Assembly: GCA_963755025.1 (NCBI GenBank)
Contig: CAVWIH010000014.1
Span: 288,001 to 352,000, forward strand
DNA: 64,000 nucleotides
Origin: an uncultured Actinomycetes bacterium
GTDB taxonomy: Bacteria > Actinomycetota > Thermoleophilia > UBA2241
Reading direction: 5' to 3'
The translations under genes were made by a program, and so were the position numbers. Shown one piece after another: positions 22,379 through 31,505 of this stretch; position 1 is the stretch's first letter; each line of letters begins with the position of its first letter. Below the pieces are notes generated by a model. It saw nothing but the letters and a program-made list of their open reading frames with translations. It was not told the origin of the DNA and ran no database searches.

Positions 22379-22439
22379 AGTCCGGCCCGGGCGCAACGGC
22401 CGGTCGAAGCGCCCCGACAGGGGTGCGTATACTGCCTCC

Positions 22440-23852
22440 ATGGCCGCTCTCGACCTGCCAGTCGACCTTGCCCAGGAGACCCGGAGCCACCTGGCCAACG
22501 TCGTCGACAACCTGCAGCTGATCGCCGACCTGGGTTACGGCGACGTAGCCCTGGTCGTGCCCGACCAGACGGGCGCGCTCGTCGTGATCGCCGACTGCCG
22601 GCCGAGCACCGCCGCGACCCCGTTCGCCACGTCGCGCGTGGGCCGCGCGCTCACGGCGAGCGAGTCGCCCGAGGCCCTGGGAGCCCTGGAGCGGGGCGCG
22701 CCCGTCGAGGGCGAGCACGAGCGTCGCGCCCACGACATGCGCTACGCGACGCTGGCCTACCCGATCGGCGAGCCCGTCCCGTTCGCCGCCGTCGTGCGCA
22801 GCCTCGCGCGGCACGCCGAGTCGGCTCCCGGAGCCATGGAGAAGGCCTTCATGCGGGCCGCCGAGGCGCTCTTGCGAGCGCTCGCCGCCGGCCCCATCGT
22901 CGACCTGCGCACAGGCGGCGGCTTCGCCACGACACGCCACGCGGGCGACGGCGTCATGCAGGTCGCCCCCACCGGACGCATCGCCTACGCCTCGCCCAAC
23001 GCGGTCAGCATCATGCGGCTGGCCGGCGTCGAGGGCCGCGTCACCGGCATGAGGGCCTCGGCGCTGCCCGGCGGCGTGCTCGGCATCTCACCGACCTTCG
23101 GCGCGCGCGGCGCCATCGCGGTGCAGGCCGAGGTCGCCCAGCGCGTGCTCGACTACCGCTCCATCGCCCTCGACTACGGCACGCTCGTGCTGGTCGAAGA
23201 CCTGACCGAGGCGCGCCGCCGCGAGCGCGAGATCATGGTCAAGCAGGCCACCATCCGCGAGGTGCACCACCGCGTCAAGAACAACCTGCAGACGATCGCC
23301 TCGCTGCTGCGCGTGCACGCGCGACGCACCACGAGCGACGAAGCGCGCAAGGCCCTGGCCGACGCCACCGACCGCGTCACCTCGATGGCCGTCGTGCACG
23401 ACCTGCTGGCGGGCTCCGACGAGGAGCGCGTCGACTTCGCCCAGGCGGCGCGCACCGTCGTCGACCTCGTGCGCCGCGGTCTCGTGGGGGAGGAGTCGCG
23501 CGTCACCGTCTCGGTGAGCGGCGCGACCGGCCAGGTCGACGCGCGCACCGCCACCTCGCTCGCCCTGACGATCGCCGAGCTCGTGCACAACGCCCTCGAG
23601 CACGCCTACGCCCCGGGCGCCGCGGGCAGCGTCGCGCTCGTCCTGCAGCGCCTGCCGCACGAGCTCGAGCTCACCGTGAGCGACGACGGCAGCGGCCTGC
23701 CGGCCGGCTTCGACCCCGCCCGCTCGAGCAACCTCGGCCTCGCCATCGTGCGCGCCCTGGTCGAAGACGACCTGCAGGGCACGCTGCACATGCGCGGCGG
23801 CCCGGGCGGCACGGTCGTCACCGTACGCGTGCCTCTCGCCGGCCCCGAGTAG
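22440..23852 (+). CDS. PdtaS/EutW-like cytoplasmic sensor histidine kinase (HisKA_2)
   Basis: LQLIADLGYGD N-terminal domain, PAS, REVHHRVKNNLQ, ELVHNALEH, DDGSG; TATACT lies 6 nt before the ATG (leaderless-type start). Confidence 0.9.
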   Translation: MAALDLPVDLAQETRSHLANVVDNLQLIADLGYGDVALVVPDQTGALVVIADCRPSTAATPFATSRVGRALTASESPEALGALERGAPVEGEHERRAHDMRYATLAYPIGEPVPFAAVVRSLARHAESAPGAMEKAFMRAAEALLRALAAGPIVDLRTGGGFATTRHAGDGVMQVAPTGRIAYASPNAVSIMRLAGVEGRVTGMRASALPGGVLGISPTFGARGAIAVQAEVAQRVLDYRSIALDYGTLVLVEDLTEARRREREIMVKQATIREVHHRVKNNLQTIASLLRVHARRTTSDEARKALADATDRVTSMAVVHDLLAGSDEERVDFAQAARTVVDLVRRGLVGEESRVTVSVSGATGQVDARTATSLALTIAELVHNALEHAYAPGAAGSVALVLQRLPHELELTVSDDGSGLPAGFDPARSSNLGLAIVRALVEDDLQGTLHMRGGPGGTVVTVRVPLAGPE

Positions 23853-23883
23853 CGGTACGCTGGCACGGGCCGCCGGCGGGTGG

Positions 23884-23978
23884 TATCCTGCCGGCACGGC
23901 ACAGTGACGTGCCGCACCAGCCATATCGGTGAGCAACGATGCTCGTCCAGCCCTTGCGGGGCCGGGCGGGCGTTTTTT
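23884..23978 (+). ncRNA. ANTAR-target twin-hairpin leader with overlapping intrinsic terminator
   Basis: -10 TATCCT; P1 CGGCAC-AGTGAC-GTGCCG (23897-23914); P2 GAGC-AACGAT-GCTC (23931-23944), close to AGCAANGRRGCUY; terminator 23941-23978 ending in T6. Confidence 0.85.
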
Positions 23979-23998
23979 CGTTGGGAGGCACCCAGGCC

Positions 23999-25450
23999 AT
24001 GACGTACGACCCGCTGCTCGACCGCATGCCCACGACGCGGACGCCCGGTCGCGGCGCCCGCGCCGACGAGCGGCCCGCGTACCGCGAAGAGGCATCGTTC
24101 AAGATCCCCGGCGGCTGCGGCCTCATGGGCGTCTGCGACGAGTCGGGCGCCGCGCTGCCCGCCGAGCTCGCCGTGCGCGCCATGGCCGTGCAGCGCGACC
24201 GCGGCAACGGCCTGGGCGGCGGTTTTGCCGGCTACGGCATCTACCCCGAGCTCGCCGAGCTCTTCTGCTTTCACCTCATGTTCCACGACACGAAGGCCAA
24301 GGACGAGGTCGAGGCCTTCCTCGCACAGGGCTTCGAGGTCGAGCGCGCCGAGCCCATCCCCACGCGCCCCGTGGCCGGCATCGACGACCCGCCGCTGCTG
24401 TGGCGCTACTTCGTGAGCCCGCGCGCGGCGTCGCTCGAGGGCGGCGCGCTGACCGCCGACGACGTCGTGGTCGCGGCCGTCATGCACGTCAACGCGGCCG
24501 TCGACGGCGCCTTCGTGGCCTCGTCGGGCAAGAACATGGGGGCCTTCAAGGGCGTCGGCTTTCCCGAGGAGATCGCCCACTTCTACAGGCTCGAGGAGTA
24601 CGCCGGCCACACCTGGCTCGGGCACAGCCGGTTTCCCACCAACACCCCCGGCTGGTGGGGCGGCGCGCACCCCTTCACGCTGCTCGACTGGTCGGTCGTG
24701 CACAACGGCGAGATCTCGAGCTACGGCATCAACCGGCGCTACCTCGAACAGTTCGGCTACCGCTGCACGCTGGGCACCGACACCGAGGTGGCGGCCTACC
24801 TGTTCGACCTGCTGCTGCGCCGCCACGGACTGCCGCTGGAGCTCGCCTGCAAGGCGCTCGCCAGCCCGCTGTGGAGCGAGATCGACCGTCTGGGCAAGAG
24901 CGACCAGGCGCTGCTGCGCGCCCTGCGCTGCGTGTACGGTTCGGCCATGCTGAACGGCCCGTTCGCCATCGTGCTGGGCTTCGCCGGCGGCATGATGGCC
25001 CTGAACGACCGCATCAAGCTGCGCCCGCTGGTGGCCGCCCGTCGCGGCTCGATCGTCATGGTGGCCTCAGAGGAGAGCGCCATCTGCGAGGTGCTCGAGG
25101 CGCCCGACGCGATCTGGTCGCCGCGCGCCGGCGAGCCCGTGATCGCTCGCGTAGCGAGCTCCGCCGGCGCGCCGGCCGCCACCCCCACCGTCGCGGCGCC
25201 CGCGAGCGGCGCGGCGCCCGCGAGCGGCGTGGCGCCCGCGAGCGGCGCGGTGGCAGCGGCGCGGCCGCCGTCGCCGCGGTGGGCTAGATGCCGCCGAGCA
25301 TGGTGCAGCCCGAGTTCACGGTCGCCATCGACGACCGGCGCTGCAGCCGCTGCGGAGGCTGCGTGGCGCAGTGCGGGTGGGGCGTCGTTGCCTTCGACGA
25401 GCGCCCCGTGCCCGACGACGCCAGGTGTCGCGCCTGCCACCGCTGCGTGA
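23999..25450 (+). CDS. Class II glutamine amidotransferase (GltB1-like subunit of a split glutamate synthase)
   Basis: CG, RGNGLGGG, SSGKN, HSRFPTN, HPF, VHNGEI, TDTEV and DRIKLRP motifs; the domain ends near 25150, and the true stop may be the TAG at 25285-25287 if the Ala-rich tail contains an indel. Confidence 0.85.
   Translation: MTYDPLLDRMPTTRTPGRGARADERPAYREEASFKIPGGCGLMGVCDESGAALPAELAVRAMAVQRDRGNGLGGGFAGYGIYPELAELFCFHLMFHDTKAKDEVEAFLAQGFEVERAEPIPTRPVAGIDDPPLLWRYFVSPRAASLEGGALTADDVVVAAVMHVNAAVDGAFVASSGKNMGAFKGVGFPEEIAHFYRLEEYAGHTWLGHSRFPTNTPGWWGGAHPFTLLDWSVVHNGEISSYGINRRYLEQFGYRCTLGTDTEVAAYLFDLLLRRHGLPLELACKALASPLWSEIDRLGKSDQALLRALRCVYGSAMLNGPFAIVLGFAGGMMALNDRIKLRPLVAARRGSIVMVASEESAICEVLEAPDAIWSPRAGEPVIARVASSAGAPAATPTVAAPASGAAPASGVAPASGAVAAARPPSPRWARCRRAWCSPSSRSPSTTGAAAAAEAAWRSAGGASLPSTSAPCPTTPGVAPATAA
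25193..25246. repeat. 3 x 18-bp tandem repeat in the GATase tail
   Basis: g(c/t)ggcgcccgcgagcggc x3. Confidence 0.8.
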
Positions 25451-26811
25451 CGTACTGCCCAAGCCACGCGATCACGATCAAGAGGAGCGAGCTTGCCTAC
25501 GGCGGCAACCAGTTCTGGGCGGCGCCGCTGCGGCGCGCGATCTGGCGCCAGGCAGAGACCGGCGGCGTCATGCTCGCCAGCACCGGCAACGACGGACCCT
25601 ACCCGAGCATCTTCGACCACCTCGTGCTCGATGCCTGTCAGATCACCAACCCGTCGATCGACCCGCTGCGCGAGCCCATGGAGCTGCGCACCTACCTGGG
25701 CGGCCAGCCCGAAGCGGTGGCCGTGGAGCCCGACGACGCGGGCGGCTACCGCCTGAAGGCCGGCGCCGCGGCGAACGTGGGCGCGGGCCACGCCATCAAA
25801 CTCGACACGCCGATCATCTTCTCGGCCATGAGCTACGGCTCGGTCTCGCTCAACGTGCACAAGTCGCTGGCCATGGCGGCCGAGCGCTGCGGCATCGTGA
25901 TGAACTGTGGCGAGGGCGGCCTGCACGCCGACCTGCACCCCCTCAAGGACCGCGTGATCGTGCAGGTGGCGTCGGGGCGCTTCGGCGTCGACCTCGACTA
26001 CCTGAAGCGCGGCGTCGCGGTCGAGATCAAAGTCGGCCAGGGCGCCAAGCCCGGAGTCGGCGGCCACCTGCCCGGCGAGAAGACCGGCGGCGACGTGGCC
26101 ACCACGCGCATGATCCCGCAGGGCTCCGACGCCCTCTCGCCGGCCCCGCACCACGACGTCTACTCCATCGAGGACCTGCGGCAGCTCATCTACTCGATCA
26201 AGGAGACCACGGGCTACAAGCCGGTCGGCGTGAAGATCGCCGCCGTGCACAACGTGGCCGCCATCGCGTCGGGCGTGGTGCGCGCCGGCGCCGACTACGT
26301 CTTTCTCGACGGCTTTCGCGGGGGCACCGGCGCGGCGCCGATGGTGATCCGCGATCACGTCGGCATTCCCCTCGAGATCGCCATCGCCGTGGTCGACCAG
26401 CGCCTGCGCGACGAGGGCATCCGCCAGCGCGCCTCGATCATCGCCGCCGGCTCGATACGCTCCGCGGCCGACATGGCCAAAGCCATCGCCCTGGGCGCCG
26501 ACGTCGTGGCCATCGGCTCGGCGGCCCTGGTGGCGCTGGGCTGCCACCTGTGCGGCGGCTGCCACACGAGCGGCTGCAGCTGGGGCCTGACCACCCACAA
26601 GCCCGAGCTCGCCAGGCGGCTCGACCCCGAGTGGGGCGCCGAGCGCCTCACCAACCTGATCGACGCCTGGAGCCACGAGCTGAAGGAGGTCCTCGGCGCC
26701 CTGGGGGTCAACGCCATCGAGTCGCTGCGCGGCAGCCGCGAACGCCTGCGCGGCGTGGGGCTCGACGCCCAGACCCTCGAGATCCTCGGCGTCAAGCCGG
26801 CCGGACTCTAG
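25288..26811 (+). CDS. Ferredoxin-fused FMN-binding glutamate synthase subunit (archaeal GltB2 type)
   Basis: CxxCxxCxxxC x2, MSYGS, GEGG, QVASGRFGV, GQGAKPG.GGHLPGEK, SPAPHHD, CHLCGGCHTSGC. Confidence 0.92.
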   Translation: MPPSMVQPEFTVAIDDRRCSRCGGCVAQCGWGVVAFDERPVPDDARCRACHRCVTYCPSHAITIKRSELAYGGNQFWAAPLRRAIWRQAETGGVMLASTGNDGPYPSIFDHLVLDACQITNPSIDPLREPMELRTYLGGQPEAVAVEPDDAGGYRLKAGAAANVGAGHAIKLDTPIIFSAMSYGSVSLNVHKSLAMAAERCGIVMNCGEGGLHADLHPLKDRVIVQVASGRFGVDLDYLKRGVAVEIKVGQGAKPGVGGHLPGEKTGGDVATTRMIPQGSDALSPAPHHDVYSIEDLRQLIYSIKETTGYKPVGVKIAAVHNVAAIASGVVRAGADYVFLDGFRGGTGAAPMVIRDHVGIPLEIAIAVVDQRLRDEGIRQRASIIAAGSIRSAADMAKAIALGADVVAIGSAALVALGCHLCGGCHTSGCSWGLTTHKPELARRLDPEWGAERLTNLIDAWSHELKEVLGALGVNAIESLRGSRERLRGVGLDAQTLEILGVKPAGL

Positions 26812-26825
26812 GAGAGGCGGGCACG

Positions 26826-27653
26826 ATGGCGTCGGATCCCGTTCCCGCTCCGGTCACCCAGGTCGTCGGCCACCTGCGCACGGCGCCGACGCTGAAGATG
26901 GCCGGCGACACGGCGACCGTCGACTGCCGCGGCGTCTACTACCGCTACGTCAACGAAGCGGTGCGCGGGGCGTTCGAGCAGGGCGCCCGCACCGTGAAGC
27001 TCGCAAACGTCATGGGCCAGCGCTACATCGGGACCGGCCTCCAGGGCGCCGACAAGCGCATCGAGGTGCACGGCACGCCGGGTCAGGACGCGGCCATGTT
27101 CATGGACGGCCCCACCCTCGAGGTCTTCGGCAACGCCCAGGACGGCCTGGGCAACACGATGAGCGCCGGGCGGGTCGTGGTGCACGGCAGCGCCGGCGAC
27201 GTGCTGGGTTACGGCATGCGCGGCGGCCGGGTGTTCGTCGCCGGTGACGTGGGCTACCGGGTGGGCATCCACATGAAGGCCCGCGAGGAGCTGCGGCCGA
27301 TCGTGGTCTGCGGCGGCAAGGCCCGCGACTTCTTCGGCGAGTACATGGCGGGAGGCCTGCTCGTGCTGCTCGGCCTGGACTCGGCCTTCGAGGGGCCGCT
27401 CGCCGGCGGCTACCTGGGCGCCGGCATGCACGGCGGCGAGATCTACCTGCGTGGCGAGGTCGAGCCCTGGAGCTGCGGCGCCGACGTCACGAGCGCCCCG
27501 GCGAGCGACGACGAGATGGGCGCCCTCGCGCCCGTGCTGGCCGACTTCTGCGCCGCCGTGGGGCGCGACGTCGCCGGCGTGCTCTCGGCGCGCTTCACGC
27601 GCATCGCGCCGGCCAGCAGCCGCCCCTACAGCGGGCGCTACGTGGGGCTGTAG
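26826..27653 (+). CDS. GXGXG beta-helix glutamate synthase subunit (GltB3/FwdC-like)
   Basis: GQRYIG, GNAQDG.GNTM, GYGMRGG, GEYMAGG, GMHGG. Confidence 0.9.
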   Translation: MASDPVPAPVTQVVGHLRTAPTLKMAGDTATVDCRGVYYRYVNEAVRGAFEQGARTVKLANVMGQRYIGTGLQGADKRIEVHGTPGQDAAMFMDGPTLEVFGNAQDGLGNTMSAGRVVVHGSAGDVLGYGMRGGRVFVAGDVGYRVGIHMKAREELRPIVVCGGKARDFFGEYMAGGLLVLLGLDSAFEGPLAGGYLGAGMHGGEIYLRGEVEPWSCGADVTSAPASDDEMGALAPVLADFCAAVGRDVAGVLSARFTRIAPASSRPYSGRYVGL

Positions 27654-27687
27654 GCCGGCCCGCGGGCCGTCGCCGGCCGCGGTTCGC

Positions 27688-28917
27688 TTACCTGCCGGGC
27701 TCCTCCCGCCCGCCCGGCGACCTCGACGCGACGGCCGCGATCGCCTCGGCGAGCGCCGCCAGCCCCTGGGCCAGCTCCGCCGCCGTGATGGTGAGCGCCG
27801 GGAACACGCGCACCCCGACGCCCTGTGTCTGGCGCACGAAGGTCTTGCGCGCCAGGCACTCGGCGGCCACCGCGCCGGCGGCGGACTCGTCGCGAAACTC
27901 CACGAGCAGCAGCAGGCCGGCGCCGCGTACGTCGGTGACGAGGTCGGGCCAGGCCGCGCGCCAGCGCTCCATCTCGGCGAGCGCCTCGCGGCCGCGCGCC
28001 GCCACCAGCGCCGGCGCGTCGATCTCGATCAGGTGCGAGATCACCGCGCAGGCCACCGCGCAGGCGAGCGGGTTGCCGCAGTAGGTGCCGCCGTGGTCGC
28101 CGAGCTCGAGCCTGCGCGAGACGGCTTCGGTCATGGCGAAGGCGCCCAGGGGGAACCCGCCGGCGATGCCCTTGGCCATGGTGAGCAGGTCCGGCGCGGC
28201 GCCGGGTGGGGTCGCAAAGAACGGGCCCGTGCGACAGAAGCCCGTCTGCACCTCGTCGACGATCAGCAAGGCGCCGCTCGCATGGCAGAGCTCGGCCACG
28301 CCGCGCAGGTAGCCGTCGGGCGGACGGCGCACGCCGCCCTCGCCCTGGACGGGCTCGACGATGACCGCTGCCACTGCCGGGTCGAGCGCGCCGGCGAGGG
28401 CGTCGAGGTCGCCGTAGGGCACGAACCGGTAGCCCGGCATCTGCGGCGCGAACTTGTCGCGGTGGCGCGCCTGCCCGGTCGCCGAGACCATGCTGATCGT
28501 GCGCCCGTGAAAGCTGCCCTCGCACGCCACCACGTCGCGCCGGCCGGTGGCCTTGCGGGCGAGCTTCACGGCGGCGTCGTTGGCCTCGGCGCCGCTGTTG
28601 GTGAAGAAGATGCGCTCGAGGCCCGCCGGCAGCAGGCCGCAGAGCAGCGTCAGCAGCCGCGCCCGCGCCGGCGAGTAGGTGAGGCCGGAGTCGGGGTTCT
28701 GCAGGATGAGCGCGCCCTGCTCGGCGAGCGCCGCCGCGATGGCGGGGTGCGCGTGGCCGATCGACGTGACGCCCCAGCCCGCGGTGAGGTCGAGGTAGCG
28801 CTCGCCCTCTTCGTCCCACACGACGACGCCCTCGCCGCGCACTATGGAGATCGGCGTCTTGGCGAAGAAGGGCGGCATGTGGGCGTTCTCTACGGCGATC
28901 GTCTGCTGGCTGGCCAT
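27688..28917 (-). CDS. argD: Acetylornithine/class III aminotransferase
   Basis: NSGAEAN, SFHGRT, EPVQGEGG, DEVQTG, AKGIAGG, HGGTYCGNP. Confidence 0.85.
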   Translation of the reverse strand: MASQQTIAVENAHMPPFFAKTPISIVRGEGVVVWDEEGERYLDLTAGWGVTSIGHAHPAIAAALAEQGALILQNPDSGLTYSPARARLLTLLCGLLPAGLERIFFTNSGAEANDAAVKLARKATGRRDVVACEGSFHGRTISMVSATGQARHRDKFAPQMPGYRFVPYGDLDALAGALDPAVAAVIVEPVQGEGGVRRPPDGYLRGVAELCHASGALLIVDEVQTGFCRTGPFFATPPGAAPDLLTMAKGIAGGFPLGAFAMTEAVSRRLELGDHGGTYCGNPLACAVACAVISHLIEIDAPALVAARGREALAEMERWRAAWPDLVTDVRGAGLLLLVEFRDESAAGAVAAECLARKTFVRQTQGVGVRVFPALTITAAELAQGLAALAEAIAAVASRSPGGREEPGR

Positions 28918-29013
28918 CGGTTCCCTCTCGATTCGTGTCCGGTCTGCCGGCCGGCCTTGTCGTGGCGATCGCCCGCCGCCAGGTCTGCCGCCCGCCGGCA
29001 GCCGCGGGCGCGC

Positions 29014-29061
29014 CGGCGTACCCGGATATCGGCGTACCTGGTCACCGGCGTACCTGGTTAC
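29014..29061. repeat. 3 x 16-bp tandem repeat spanning the ANTAR gene stop codon
   Basis: cggcgtacccggatat / cggcgtacctggtcac / cggcgtacctggttac. Confidence 0.75.
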
Positions 29062-29624
29062 AGGGCGTCGCCGGCCGTGATGATCGCCTCGGCCACCTCG
29101 CGCAGGGTCTTGCGCCGGTCCATGGCGACCTTCTGCAGCCGGCGAAAGGCGTCGGCCTCGGTGAGCCCGCGCGCCATGAGCAGGCCCTTGGCCTGGTCGA
29201 CGACCTTGCGGGTCTCGAGACGCTCGGTCAGGTCGCCCACCTCGCGCGCCAGCAGGGCGGCCTCGGCGAAGCGCGCGACCGCCACCTCCATGGCCGGCAC
29301 GATGTCGTTGCGCGAGAAGGGCTTGACGACGTAGCCCATGGCGCCGGCGCGTGTGGCTTGCTCGACCTGCGCGGGCTGCGAGAACGCCGTGAGGATCACC
29401 ACGGGCGCGATCGCTTCGGCGCTGATGGCGGCCGTCGCCTCGATGCCGTTCACGCCCGGCATGTTGATGTCCATGAAGACCACGTCGGGCCGGCACGAGC
29501 GCGCCAAGGCGATCGCCTCGGCGCCGTCGCGCGCCTCGGCCACCACCTCGTGGCCGCCGTCTATGAGCATCTCGCGCAGGTCCATGCGGATCAGCGCCTC
29601 GTCTTCGGCGATCAGCACTCGCAA
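29058..29624 (-). CDS. REC-ANTAR response regulator (PdtaR/EutV-like antiterminator)
   Basis: VLIAEDEALIRMDL, MDINMP, YVVKP, ETRKVVDQAKGLLM...AMDRRK; TTG at 29624 follows AGAGGA. Confidence 0.93.
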   Translation of the reverse strand: MRVLIAEDEALIRMDLREMLIDGGHEVVAEARDGAEAIALARSCRPDVVFMDINMPGVNGIEATAAISAEAIAPVVILTAFSQPAQVEQATRAGAMGYVVKPFSRNDIVPAMEVAVARFAEAALLAREVGDLTERLETRKVVDQAKGLLMARGLTEADAFRRLQKVAMDRRKTLREVAEAIITAGDAL

Positions 29625-29742
29625 GGCCGGGGTCCTCTTCGTCGTCTCCGTGTCGTCGCGCCCCGGTCGTCGCTCGCCGGCGACCGGGGCCCGGCACGCT
29701 TGTAGCTTACCGACGCGCGTGGCGTCGCGCCTGCGTTTTCGC

Positions 29743-30078
29743 CTACATCTCGAAACCGAGGGAGCTGAGGCTGCAGAACACGTGGGCCGTCTTGGCATGC
29801 CCGCGGCGCTGCGGGGCTATGCGGAAGGTCGACCAGTGCGGCAGGGCGACGATGTCGGCTCCGCCGCCGTCGCGCAGGTCGAGCGCGCCCGACTCGAGCA
29901 CGCCGTTGTCGAACACACCGGCGAATTCCTGATGATGGATCTCCACCATCTCGAGCTCGCCGAGGATGTCGGTGAACCAGAGTTGGATGCGCTTCACGTC
30001 GTGTTCGGCGACCTGAAGGCGGATGCTGGCCAGGAGCTCATTCTTCCTGTGTCTTCCTGGTGGCCATGGTCCGCGCAC
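29743..30078 (-). CDS. Stand-alone glutamine synthetase N-terminal (beta-grasp) domain protein, or glnA remnant
   Basis: HDVKRIQLWFTDILGEL..VEI, P.WSTF.I.P and A.VFC match the GS-I N-domain; ends at TAG 29743 with no catalytic domain; start is GTG 30078 or a frameshifted ATG 30067. Confidence 0.7.
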   Translation of the reverse strand: MRGPWPPGRHRKNELLASIRLQVAEHDVKRIQLWFTDILGELEMVEIHHQEFAGVFDNGVLESGALDLRDGGGADIVALPHWSTFRIAPQRRGHAKTAHVFCSLSSLGFEM

Positions 30079-30148
30079 GTGGCGCGCTGGCAGATGAGCG
30101 AGGAGGGTTCGGGGCCCGGGGTCTCCTTTCTGCGCCGCGCCGGAAACG

Positions 30149-30233
30149 AAAAAACTCCCCGGGCCGCGAGGGCCAGGGGAGCGTCGTTGCTCCGGCAGGT
30201 GGCGGCACGCCGTTGTGCCGATGCCGCATGCTA
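30149..30233 (-). ncRNA. Second ANTAR-target twin-hairpin leader with terminator
   Basis: Minus strand: -10 TAGCAT; P1 CGGCAC-AACGGC-GTGCCG (30220-30203); P2 GAGC-AACGAC-GCTC (30192-30179); terminator CTCCCC..GGGGAG-T6. Confidence 0.85.
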
Positions 30234-30264: not shown

Positions 30265-30362
30265 CCTGGGCCGGCACGCGCATGGGCCGGCACGCGCCCG
30301 CCTAGGCCGGCACGCGCCCGCATGGACCGGTACGCGCCTGGGCCGGCACGCGCCTACGCCGG
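30265..30362. repeat. Imperfect tandem repeat (ggccggcacgcgc core, about 5 copies) after the kinase stop codon
   Basis: Visible 16-20 bp units. Confidence 0.7.
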
Positions 30363-31505
30363 CCGCACCGGGTCGGCGCCACCGGACTGCCGGGACTGCT
30401 GCGGCGCGCGGCCGGGCGCGAGCGGGATACTGAACGTGATGGTCGTGCCCGCGCCGTCGTTGCTTGCGGCGGCGATCCGCCCGCCGTGGCTTTCGACCAG
30501 GCTCCTGGCGATCGCCAGCCCCAAGCCGCTGCCCTTGGAATCGGCCGACTTTGAGAAGCGGTCGAACAGCCCGGAGAGCTCCTCGGCGGCGATGCCGCGG
30601 CCGTTGTCGCTCACCGTGAACACCGCGTCGCCGCCCGAGAGCGCCACGGCCACGACCACGGCGCCGCCGGCCGGCGTGTAGCGCACGGCGTTGGCCACCA
30701 GGTTGTCGAGCACCTGGCGCAGCCGCACCGGGTCGACGTCGAGCTCGGGCACACCCTCGACGCCGGCCGTCAGCGTCACCCCACGGGCGGCTGCCGTCGC
30801 CTGAAAGGCGCGCAGGGTCTCGTCGACGAGGCGCCGCGGATCGGTGGCCTCGCGGTGCAGCCGCAAGGCGCCCGCCTGGGCCAGGGAAAGGGTCTGCAGG
30901 TCCTCGAGCAGGCGAGCCATGAGCTACGTCTCGGCCAGCACGGGGGTGAGGTGGTCGTCGTCCCGTGGGTAGAGGCCGTCGAGCATGCCCTCGACGTCGC
31001 CGCGGATGACCGACAGCGGTGTGCGCAGCTCGTGGGCGATCTCGGCCAGCAACGCGCGCCGCTGCTCCTCGTTCTCCTGCAGCCGCTGGGCCATCTCGTT
31101 GAATGCCCCGGCGAGCTGCCGGACCTCGCTCGAGCCGCGCGCCTCGACCCGCGCGCCGTAGTCGCCCCCGGCCACCCTGCTGGCGGCGTCCATGACGTCG
31201 CCGATGGGCGCCGCCGTGCGGCGCAACACGCGGCCGATCACCAGGGCGCCCACCACGACGAGGGCCACTACGGGGAACAGCAGGAAGAACGGGTGCGGGC
31301 CGCCGCGCCAGCCGCCGCCGCGCGGCCGCAAAGTCATCGCGTTCCAGATGACGCCCAGAGCGATCAGCAGCGCAAAGAAGGCGAGCAGCAGCAAGACGAC
31401 GCGCCGCACGAAGCGGCGGCGCAGGCGGTGCCAGTCGCCGCCGCTCGGCGGCCAAGGCTCGCCTTCGGGCCACCAGGGCGGAGAGCGCCGGCCGGCCGGA
31501 CTCAT
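30354..31505 (-). CDS. BaeS-like HAMP sensor histidine kinase with an in-frame TAG at 30924-30926
   Basis: 2 TM helices, HAMP, AHELRTPL, NLVANA, DNGRGI, GSGLGL; the frame continues across the TAG (LAET*LMARLLEDL). Confidence 0.85.

Follow-up and report, generated by a model that had tools for sequence, protein, structure and literature searches.

We analyzed 64,000 nucleotides (nt) of DNA (hereafter, the window) from an uncultured Thermoleophilia bacterium (Actinomycetota; UBA2241; contig CAVWIH010000014.1 of assembly GCA_963755025.1, positions 288,001 to 352,000 of the forward strand) that carry genes for a PdtaS-type histidine kinase and a REC-ANTAR response regulator together with two RNA leaders, each with twin hairpins and an intrinsic terminator. 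Our data indicate that these elements form a real switch of a known type, with a narrower role than the control of nitrogen assimilation as a whole that a preliminary description of the locus had proposed, and with two small-protein targets that we could not match to any described family. We estimate a probability of roughly 70% that this is an ANTAR read-through switch acting on a split glutamate synthase (glt), a stand-alone fragment of glutamine synthetase (GS), and a small protein with a likely feedback role. By analogy with EutV/EutW, the kinase likely phosphorylates Asp52 of the regulator, a dimer of which would hold the P1 and P2 loops of three leaders; in a dimer-bound leader the overlapping terminator would likely be blocked, and transcription is predicted to continue into the genes for glutamate synthase, the dead GS fragment, and a 52-residue protein encoded on another contig (C39). 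The 52-residue protein likely exerts feedback on the kinase-regulator pair through a short binding motif.

All elements named in the preliminary description were present at their positions (Table 1), and the two window leaders indeed share one design (i.e., -10 box, 7-nt gap, hairpins P1 and P2, and a tract of six T), each element of which we located. Leader 1, on the forward strand, has the -10-like hexamer TATCCT (23884-23889), P1 loop AGTGAC, P2 loop AACGAT, and a 16-nt linker between P1 and P2, while leader 2, on the reverse strand, has TAGCAT (30233-30228), AACGGC, AACGAC, and a 10-nt linker. Both leaders meet the EutV rule of two stems of at least 3 base pairs with 6-nt loops that have A at position 1 and G at position 4 (A1 and G4). 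In the lowest-energy fold of both, the P2 3' arm is paired into the terminator, and in silico this fold is more stable than the two-hairpin form by 6-7 kcal/mol (-41.2 versus -34.2 kcal/mol for leader 1; -35.2 versus -28.6 kcal/mol for leader 2). The terminator takes the P2 3' arm in all 37 leaders folded, and in these models the two-hairpin and terminator folds are mutually exclusive. A generic promoter scan of the window reported neither leader -10 box; we accept these boxes because of their conserved spacing, with a gap of 7-8 nt following the box in 33 of 35 pattern matches. Taken together, the sequence anatomy supports leaders of the EutV antitermination type that share a locus with the kinase and regulator genes.

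Across 34 aligned leaders (3 of 37 were left out, and 2 more had no P1 by the rule used), P1 pairing was kept in 97.5% of cells and terminator pairing in 93%, with three compensatory pairs in each. These compensatory counts were each reached in 0-4 of 500 shuffles, a figure that overstates significance since the aligned leaders are related, and slid controls show far less pairing. A loose descriptor alone was only modestly enriched, with five T downstream in 4 of 275 dual A..G hairpins versus 56 of 13164 (approximately 0.4%) for the other 15 loop-letter pairs. The specific leader pattern occurred in 27 of the 89 genomes of the host's family and 0 times in the reversed control, and in a class-wide sample of 151 genomes true covariance-model matches were found in this family only. 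The sole covariance-model match outside the family (G059) was a terminator without P1 and was rejected. Rfam yielded no family for the leaders (five matches, at chance level). Tandem leader-terminator units precede hdrBC-glt operons in two genomes (L074:15735-15823 in G093; L080:15115-15202 in G090), and in several genomes the second leader unit either lacks a clear P1 or has its P1 loop start with G rather than A.

Both proteins of the pair have their closest solved structures in mycobacterial PdtaS/PdtaR (Rv3220c/Rv1626) and the same domain order. The closest PdtaS structure to the kinase is 2ykf (E 2e-23), and the regulator matches Rv1626/PdtaR at E 8e-60 and EutV at E 2e-39. The phospho-acceptor His276 is kept in 26 of 26 kinases and Asp52 is invariant in 31 regulators. 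The regulator gene, which likely starts at the TTG at 29624 rather than at the ATG at 29798 given by the open reading frame (ORF) finder, is the sole ANTAR gene found in the assembly of this genome (G000; 84% complete), and a regulator is present in 31 of the 89 family genomes.

With the covariance model we found the two window leaders and a third at G000:C39:15322-15401, and no others in this genome. The small protein encoded behind the third leader is the most conserved target of the switch, and its place on contig C39 runs counter to the proposal that all targets lie in one locus. We found the small ORF in 30 of the 31 regulator-bearing family genomes, each time directly behind a leader; the other regulator-bearing genome, G069, in which no match was found, is 76% complete and in 1070 contigs. 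Among the 58 regulator-less family genomes, one had a weak partial match (G073, E 3e-4), which we did not count as real. The distribution of the small ORF is patchy within two genera, which argues that the co-occurrence is not simple clade membership. The leader-small ORF unit lies within approximately 1 kb of the kinase-regulator genes in most genomes and on another contig in this genome, in G102, and for the main G004 copy. The small ORF was not found in 321 genomes of the class's other families.

The ratio of nonsynonymous to synonymous change (dN/dS) of the small ORF was 0.21 for 16 sequences from a single genus, compared with 1.6 and 2.2 for the other frames, and was 0.23 among five sequences of the window genome's type, while codons 2-24 had a nonsynonymous value (pN) of 0.023 versus a synonymous value (pS) of 0.30. 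This substitution pattern indicates that the ORF codes for a protein under purifying selection. Protein searches yielded 61 clusters when grouped at 90% identity; at 50%, 28 representatives were credible (a 29th, P0186, was treated as a false match). Members are approximately 40-65 residues long. Clusters 4 and 7 of the protein listing mix unrelated proteins (kinases with the GS fragment, and 930-residue receptors with the peptide) that have no such segment in common, making the member counts unreliable. The part common to the family is an N-terminal motif in which P-x-x-M-P is invariant in 47 sequences and is followed three residues later by E in at least 90%. Among P0173, P0178, and P0181 the motif is doubled in one protein and fused before a longer unknown domain in two, as expected of a short binding motif. 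No Pfam-like or NCBIfam family matches the peptide, and the ESM Atlas gave unnamed clusters only, with recognition below the useful mark. A literature search on ANTAR, small proteins, and PdtaS feedback gave nothing on such a peptide by title among the matches listed.

We considered whether the transcript of leader and small ORF might instead titrate the regulator as a decoy RNA, in the manner of Rli55, EutX, and PPE1-5', with the peptide incidental. Decoys are established for ANTAR regulators (PMC5449094), and the unit carries a promoter-like box of its own and usually adjoins the regulator gene. However, selection acts on the amino acids, and the terminator that the hairpins overlap stands ahead of the ribosome site, as in a true attenuator, leaving a pure decoy very improbable. 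As to the partner of the peptide, the peptide tracks the kinase-regulator pair and not glt, and we therefore rank feedback on the pair first, tentatively, and modulation of GS or another enzyme second, with still lower confidence. Any target of the switch would track the pair, so that the co-occurrence fits both partners. MgrB and Sda are small-protein feedback regulators of the kinases PhoQ and KinA, respectively. The peptide resembles these two and the GS inactivation factors IF7 and IF17 in being short, system-induced, and (putatively) enzyme-binding; there is no sequence match and the likeness is an analogy only. IF7 and IF17 are described as short proteins acting on GS (PMC6316151).

The second small protein is a stand-alone GS beta-grasp domain. 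Protein searches gave 37 clusters of such fragments, 101-138 residues long, or 38 with the window copy, after 10 of 47 proteins had been dropped (seven pieces of full GS and three partial or frameshifted). In a tree of 105 columns all 38 fragments fall into a single clade (100/99) within the GlnA of the family itself, which overturned an earlier view of the window copy as a one-off relic, based on the lack of a stand-alone copy in 60 relatives. The fragments resemble the N-terminal beta-grasp domain of type I GS (PF03951) in sequence and predicted fold, and the predicted model of the ortholog P0077 (predicted local distance difference test score, pLDDT, 78) matches GS N-domains. Unlike type I GS, they lack the catalytic C-terminal domain (the window copy stops after 101 codons and scores 23 bits against TIGR00653, cut-off 429), have a degenerate D50 loop, and share a new C-terminal motif. 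K33, F52, and E65 are kept in none of the 38 fragments, with E or D at position 33 in all, and D53, which from the alignment and the residue numbering we take to be the catalytic Asp of the D50 loop, is kept in one; a literature search on this numbering yielded nothing of relevance. In Gram-positive GS the D50 loop is described as holding catalytic and feedback residues (PMC9249791). The fold-core residues W24, D27, G30, D67, P72, and C94 are kept in all 38. Judged from the lost residues, the fragments are catalytically dead. The simplest guess is that they bind GS subunits through the retained surface, and such a role as a non-catalytic binder is a possibility that we put forward with reserve.

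All seven fragments with DNA context lie downstream of a leader, either directly behind it (G000, G097, G103, L168, and L169) or at the end of a glt operon (G092 and G104). Within the family the fragment occurs in 5 of 89 genomes, all of which bear the regulator (G000, G092, G097, G103, and a frameshifted copy in G104). A GTDB-wide scan with the fragment gave only one match, a full-length GS, and in a metagenome scan 78 of the 80 matches kept out of 524 were not stand-alone. We found no literature on stand-alone GS beta-grasp proteins by title or start of abstract, in a search that covered few subscription papers.

For glutamate synthase, we found the operon in 9 of 89 family genomes at a strict cut-off and in frameshifted form in G090. 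A leader stands directly upstream in 9 of these 10 operons, and in the other (G065) the contig starts inside the operon. This position makes it likely that the split glutamate synthase is under leader control, as was proposed for leader 1. In the window, the kinase gene, leader 1, and the first glt gene are bridged by contigs of other runs (X2 piece 2). A HdrB-HdrC fusion is the first gene of the operon in eight other leader-headed cases; it is missing here (window 23979-23999), and the HdrB homologs of this genome are only distant (27-33%). Two genomes of another family have hdrBC-glt-glnA without such a leader. The first glt gene has a low-complexity tail with three 18-bp repeats (25198-25450), and its frame overlaps the following gene by 54 codons, although in another frame a TAG directly precedes the ATG of that gene; a small indel is possible.

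Several observations weigh against the proposed switch. P2 pairing is 100%, nearly invariant, and without compensatory change, such that the P2 pairing rests on conservation. The linker of leader 2 falls within the 5-12 nt described for the Enterococcus faecalis eut leaders, where 14 nt reduced induction (PMC3369931), while the 16 nt of leader 1 lie beyond it; the family range is 7-17 nt. The RNA run X20 yielded contigs alone, and their sequence was mostly diverged. Sixteen of the genomes counted also supplied the peptide profile (G003, G004, G083, and G102 were new finds), and the family genomes are related, many of them less than 90% complete. The covariance model found no leader at full-length glnA (C14:1412), gdhA, the PII gene, or the amt loci, and no glt target was found in 22 of the 31 regulator-bearing genomes, so that the nitrogen link is indirect. 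Finally, the window copy of the GS fragment has AGG at the start position where its orthologs have ATG (Met in P0077).

The last point bears on whether the GS fragment of the window is a decaying pseudogene, with leader 2 now serving only the regulator and aminotransferase genes, or nothing. Assembly error was rejected as the source of the AGG, which was also seen in contigs of runs X1, X2, and X4 (three studies, although the best of these runs may come from the very sample that gave the window). The pseudogene reading is in line with the absence of both fragment and leader 2 from G004 and with the rarity of the fragment in the family. On the other hand, leader 2 and the frame of the fragment are intact, in-frame GTG codons occur at 30078 and 29997, and the three strain differences inside the fragment, a small number, are all silent. 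The window's fragment may be decaying, to which we assign a nearly even chance, and the proposed GS N-domain gene behind leader 2 held up as an ORF in that place while lacking a canonical start.

The absence of leaders at the central nitrogen genes bears on the proposal that nitrogen assimilation is under an autoamplifying master switch acting at the RNA level, in which leader 2 would drive induction of the regulator and argD. Covariance-model matches had been expected at glnA and amtB, and none was found, the three sites being the only ones genome-wide. Leader 2, the GS fragment, the regulator gene, and the aminotransferase gene do run head to tail with no T-tract terminator seen between them, and 5 of 31 genomes (G000, G003, G008, G097, and G103), as well as the metagenome locus L169, have a leader on the strand of the kinase or regulator gene and upstream of it. 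However, this layout is missing in the other 26 regulator-bearing genomes, and both kinase and regulator have promoter-like hexamers of their own. TATACT stands just before the kinase start in the six genomes inspected (G000, G001, G008, G009, G097, and G103). TAAGCT (29709-29704) and approximately 60 flanking nt are kept in G004 without a leader upstream, and the same hexamer occupies the -10 position of the G090 peptide leader; from this placement the regulator gene likely has its own promoter. In G004, the closest relative (regulator 97% identical), kinase and aminotransferase genes converge, and there is no glt, leader 2, or GS fragment, nor any leader near the main copy of the pair. Transcripts from leader 2 may read through into the regulator gene; given the likely basal promoters, they would only top up the regulator. 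A literature search on positive feedback in EutV systems gave one review, in which the match concerned PrfA. Positive feedback as a design thus finds little in its favor, and we consider a master switch improbable.

Another possibility is that the pair senses a cue unrelated to nitrogen (i.e., redox, amino-acid starvation, or cyclic di-GMP), with the small protein as ancestral output and glt recruited in some lineages. This would fit a glt target in just 9 of 31 genomes, the HdrB-HdrC iron-sulfur protein first behind the leader in 8 of the 9 glt cases, and mycobacterial PdtaS, which is described as binding cyclic di-GMP and sensing copper and nitric oxide (bioRxiv 10.1101/615575; PMC8131098). 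Yet every enzyme-like target found is nitrogen-related (glt and the GS-derived fragment), an ArgD-like gene is the usual neighbor, and the two-cysteine GAF motif for copper and nitric oxide is complete in none of 26 kinases (first Cys in 0, second in 2). We therefore regard a non-nitrogen cue as rather unlikely and lean, tentatively, toward a nitrogen-linked signal.

The read-through switch is closest in design to EutW/EutV of E. faecalis (PMC3369931), which likewise pairs a HisKA_2 kinase with a REC-ANTAR regulator and two A1/G4 hexaloop hairpins, the second overlapping the terminator; the leaders here match the EutV rules with AC/GU closing pairs in P1 and a P2 that agrees with the eut consensus at 12 of 13 nt. 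In contrast to EutW/EutV, the host is a member of Thermoleophilia, the kinase has a PdtaS-type GAF input, one linker is 16 nt, the conserved target is a small protein, and the second target is a dead GS fragment. Control of GS and glutamate synthase (GOGAT) at the RNA level is itself not new: genes for glutamate synthase, GS, PII, and ammonium transporters were predicted in 2012 to be preceded by such leaders (Ramesh; PMC3369931), and ANTAR antitermination by NitR of Clostridium saccharobutylicum is reported to induce GS/GOGAT under nitrogen limitation (PMC6316151). Relative to the NitR system as described there, full-length glnA is leaderless here, a cognate kinase is present, and GOGAT is of a three-piece type. 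In mycobacteria, the usual ANTAR target overlaps the ribosome site and is repressed (PMC8131098; PMC8164766), and few actinobacterial ANTAR RNAs are described as having terminators (PMC8164766), whereas in the leaders analyzed here the hairpins precede a terminator, with the start codon after the T tract, and the two-cysteine motif is missing from the kinases. The leaders are clean terminator-coupled ANTAR targets in a phylum with few such cases. We found no literature on ANTAR in Thermoleophilia, in a search that covered few subscription papers.

The switch itself is ordinary, and its target set is what counts. As a near-obligate companion of the pair, the small protein offers a handle on PdtaS-type systems beyond mycobacteria, and a dead stand-alone GS domain, if governed by the same switch, would represent a new mode of GS regulation. 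Both proteins are small and predicted to be soluble. A bolder view, that in one Thermoleophilia family the system exists mainly to make two post-translational regulators (i.e., a P-x-x-M-P peptide with feedback on the kinase-regulator pair and a domesticated, catalytically dead beta-grasp domain that caps or tunes GS rings), seems doubtful to us; if true, it would mean nitrogen control via RNA-switched microproteins, one regulator having evolved from a piece of its enzyme.

Table 1. Features of the kinase-regulator locus (window positions) and of the third leader, which lies outside the window
Feature	Position	Strand	Evidence
-10-like TATACT, 6 nt ahead of the kinase ATG; basal transcript likely leaderless	22428..22433	+	
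PdtaS-type cytoplasmic histidine kinase, 470 residues	22440..23852	+	Pfam GAF_PdtaS, HisKA_2, HATPase_c
Leader 1: -10 box, P1 23897-23914, P2 23931-23944, terminator, T6 23973-23978	23884..23978	+	
Split glutamate synthase, amidotransferase subunit	23999..25450	+	GATase_2/6
Split glutamate synthase, flavin mononucleotide (FMN) subunit, N-terminal 4Fe-4S dicluster	25288..26811	+	Glu_synthase E 1e-127, Fer4_7
Split glutamate synthase, GXGXG subunit	26826..27653	+	PF01493
ArgD-like class III aminotransferase; conserved neighbor, not a conserved leader target	27688..28917	-	
REC-ANTAR response regulator, 188 residues	29058..29624	-	domain search; structure matches
-10-like hexamer TAAGCT, likely the regulator's own promoter	29704..29709	-	
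Stand-alone GS beta-grasp ORF, 101 codons, catalytic loop lost, AGG at start	29743..30048	-	PF03951
Leader 2: -10 box, P1 30220-30203, P2 30192-30179, terminator, T6 30154-30149	30149..30233	-	
Third leader and 52-codon ORF (outside window)	G000:C39:15116-15401 (L039:7116-7402)	-	

The aminotransferase gene had been labeled argD and placed among the targets of leader 2. Its best matches are indeed argD models, at scores below the curated cut-offs (344 bits versus a curated argD cut-off of 410; 339-346 bits versus cut-offs of 372-457), and we refer to it as ArgD-like. It is a frequent neighbor of the system (in genus g10 it lies on the opposite strand in 15 genomes), and in no related locus read does a leader stand directly before it; for these reasons we do not treat it as a conserved target. 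The proteins of relatives carry the source label Thermoleophilia.

Two of the four amt genes of this genome seem to be split by frameshifts (G000:C37:65221-68534 and C14:378813-380001), and the pair on C37 lies on either side of an AT-rich spacer that differs from the remainder of the genome; the split genes and the spacer are possibly assembly errors or foreign DNA. In another family (f3; L034-L038), a kinase with a longer input region and a REC-ANTAR regulator lie 3-5 kb from glnA in four of five genomes, with amtB and a PII gene nearby in one genome and no leader of the present type. Short GC-rich direct repeats occur in the window in approximately five copies upstream of the leader 2 promoter (30270-30365) and in three copies right behind the regulator stop codon (29010-29058).

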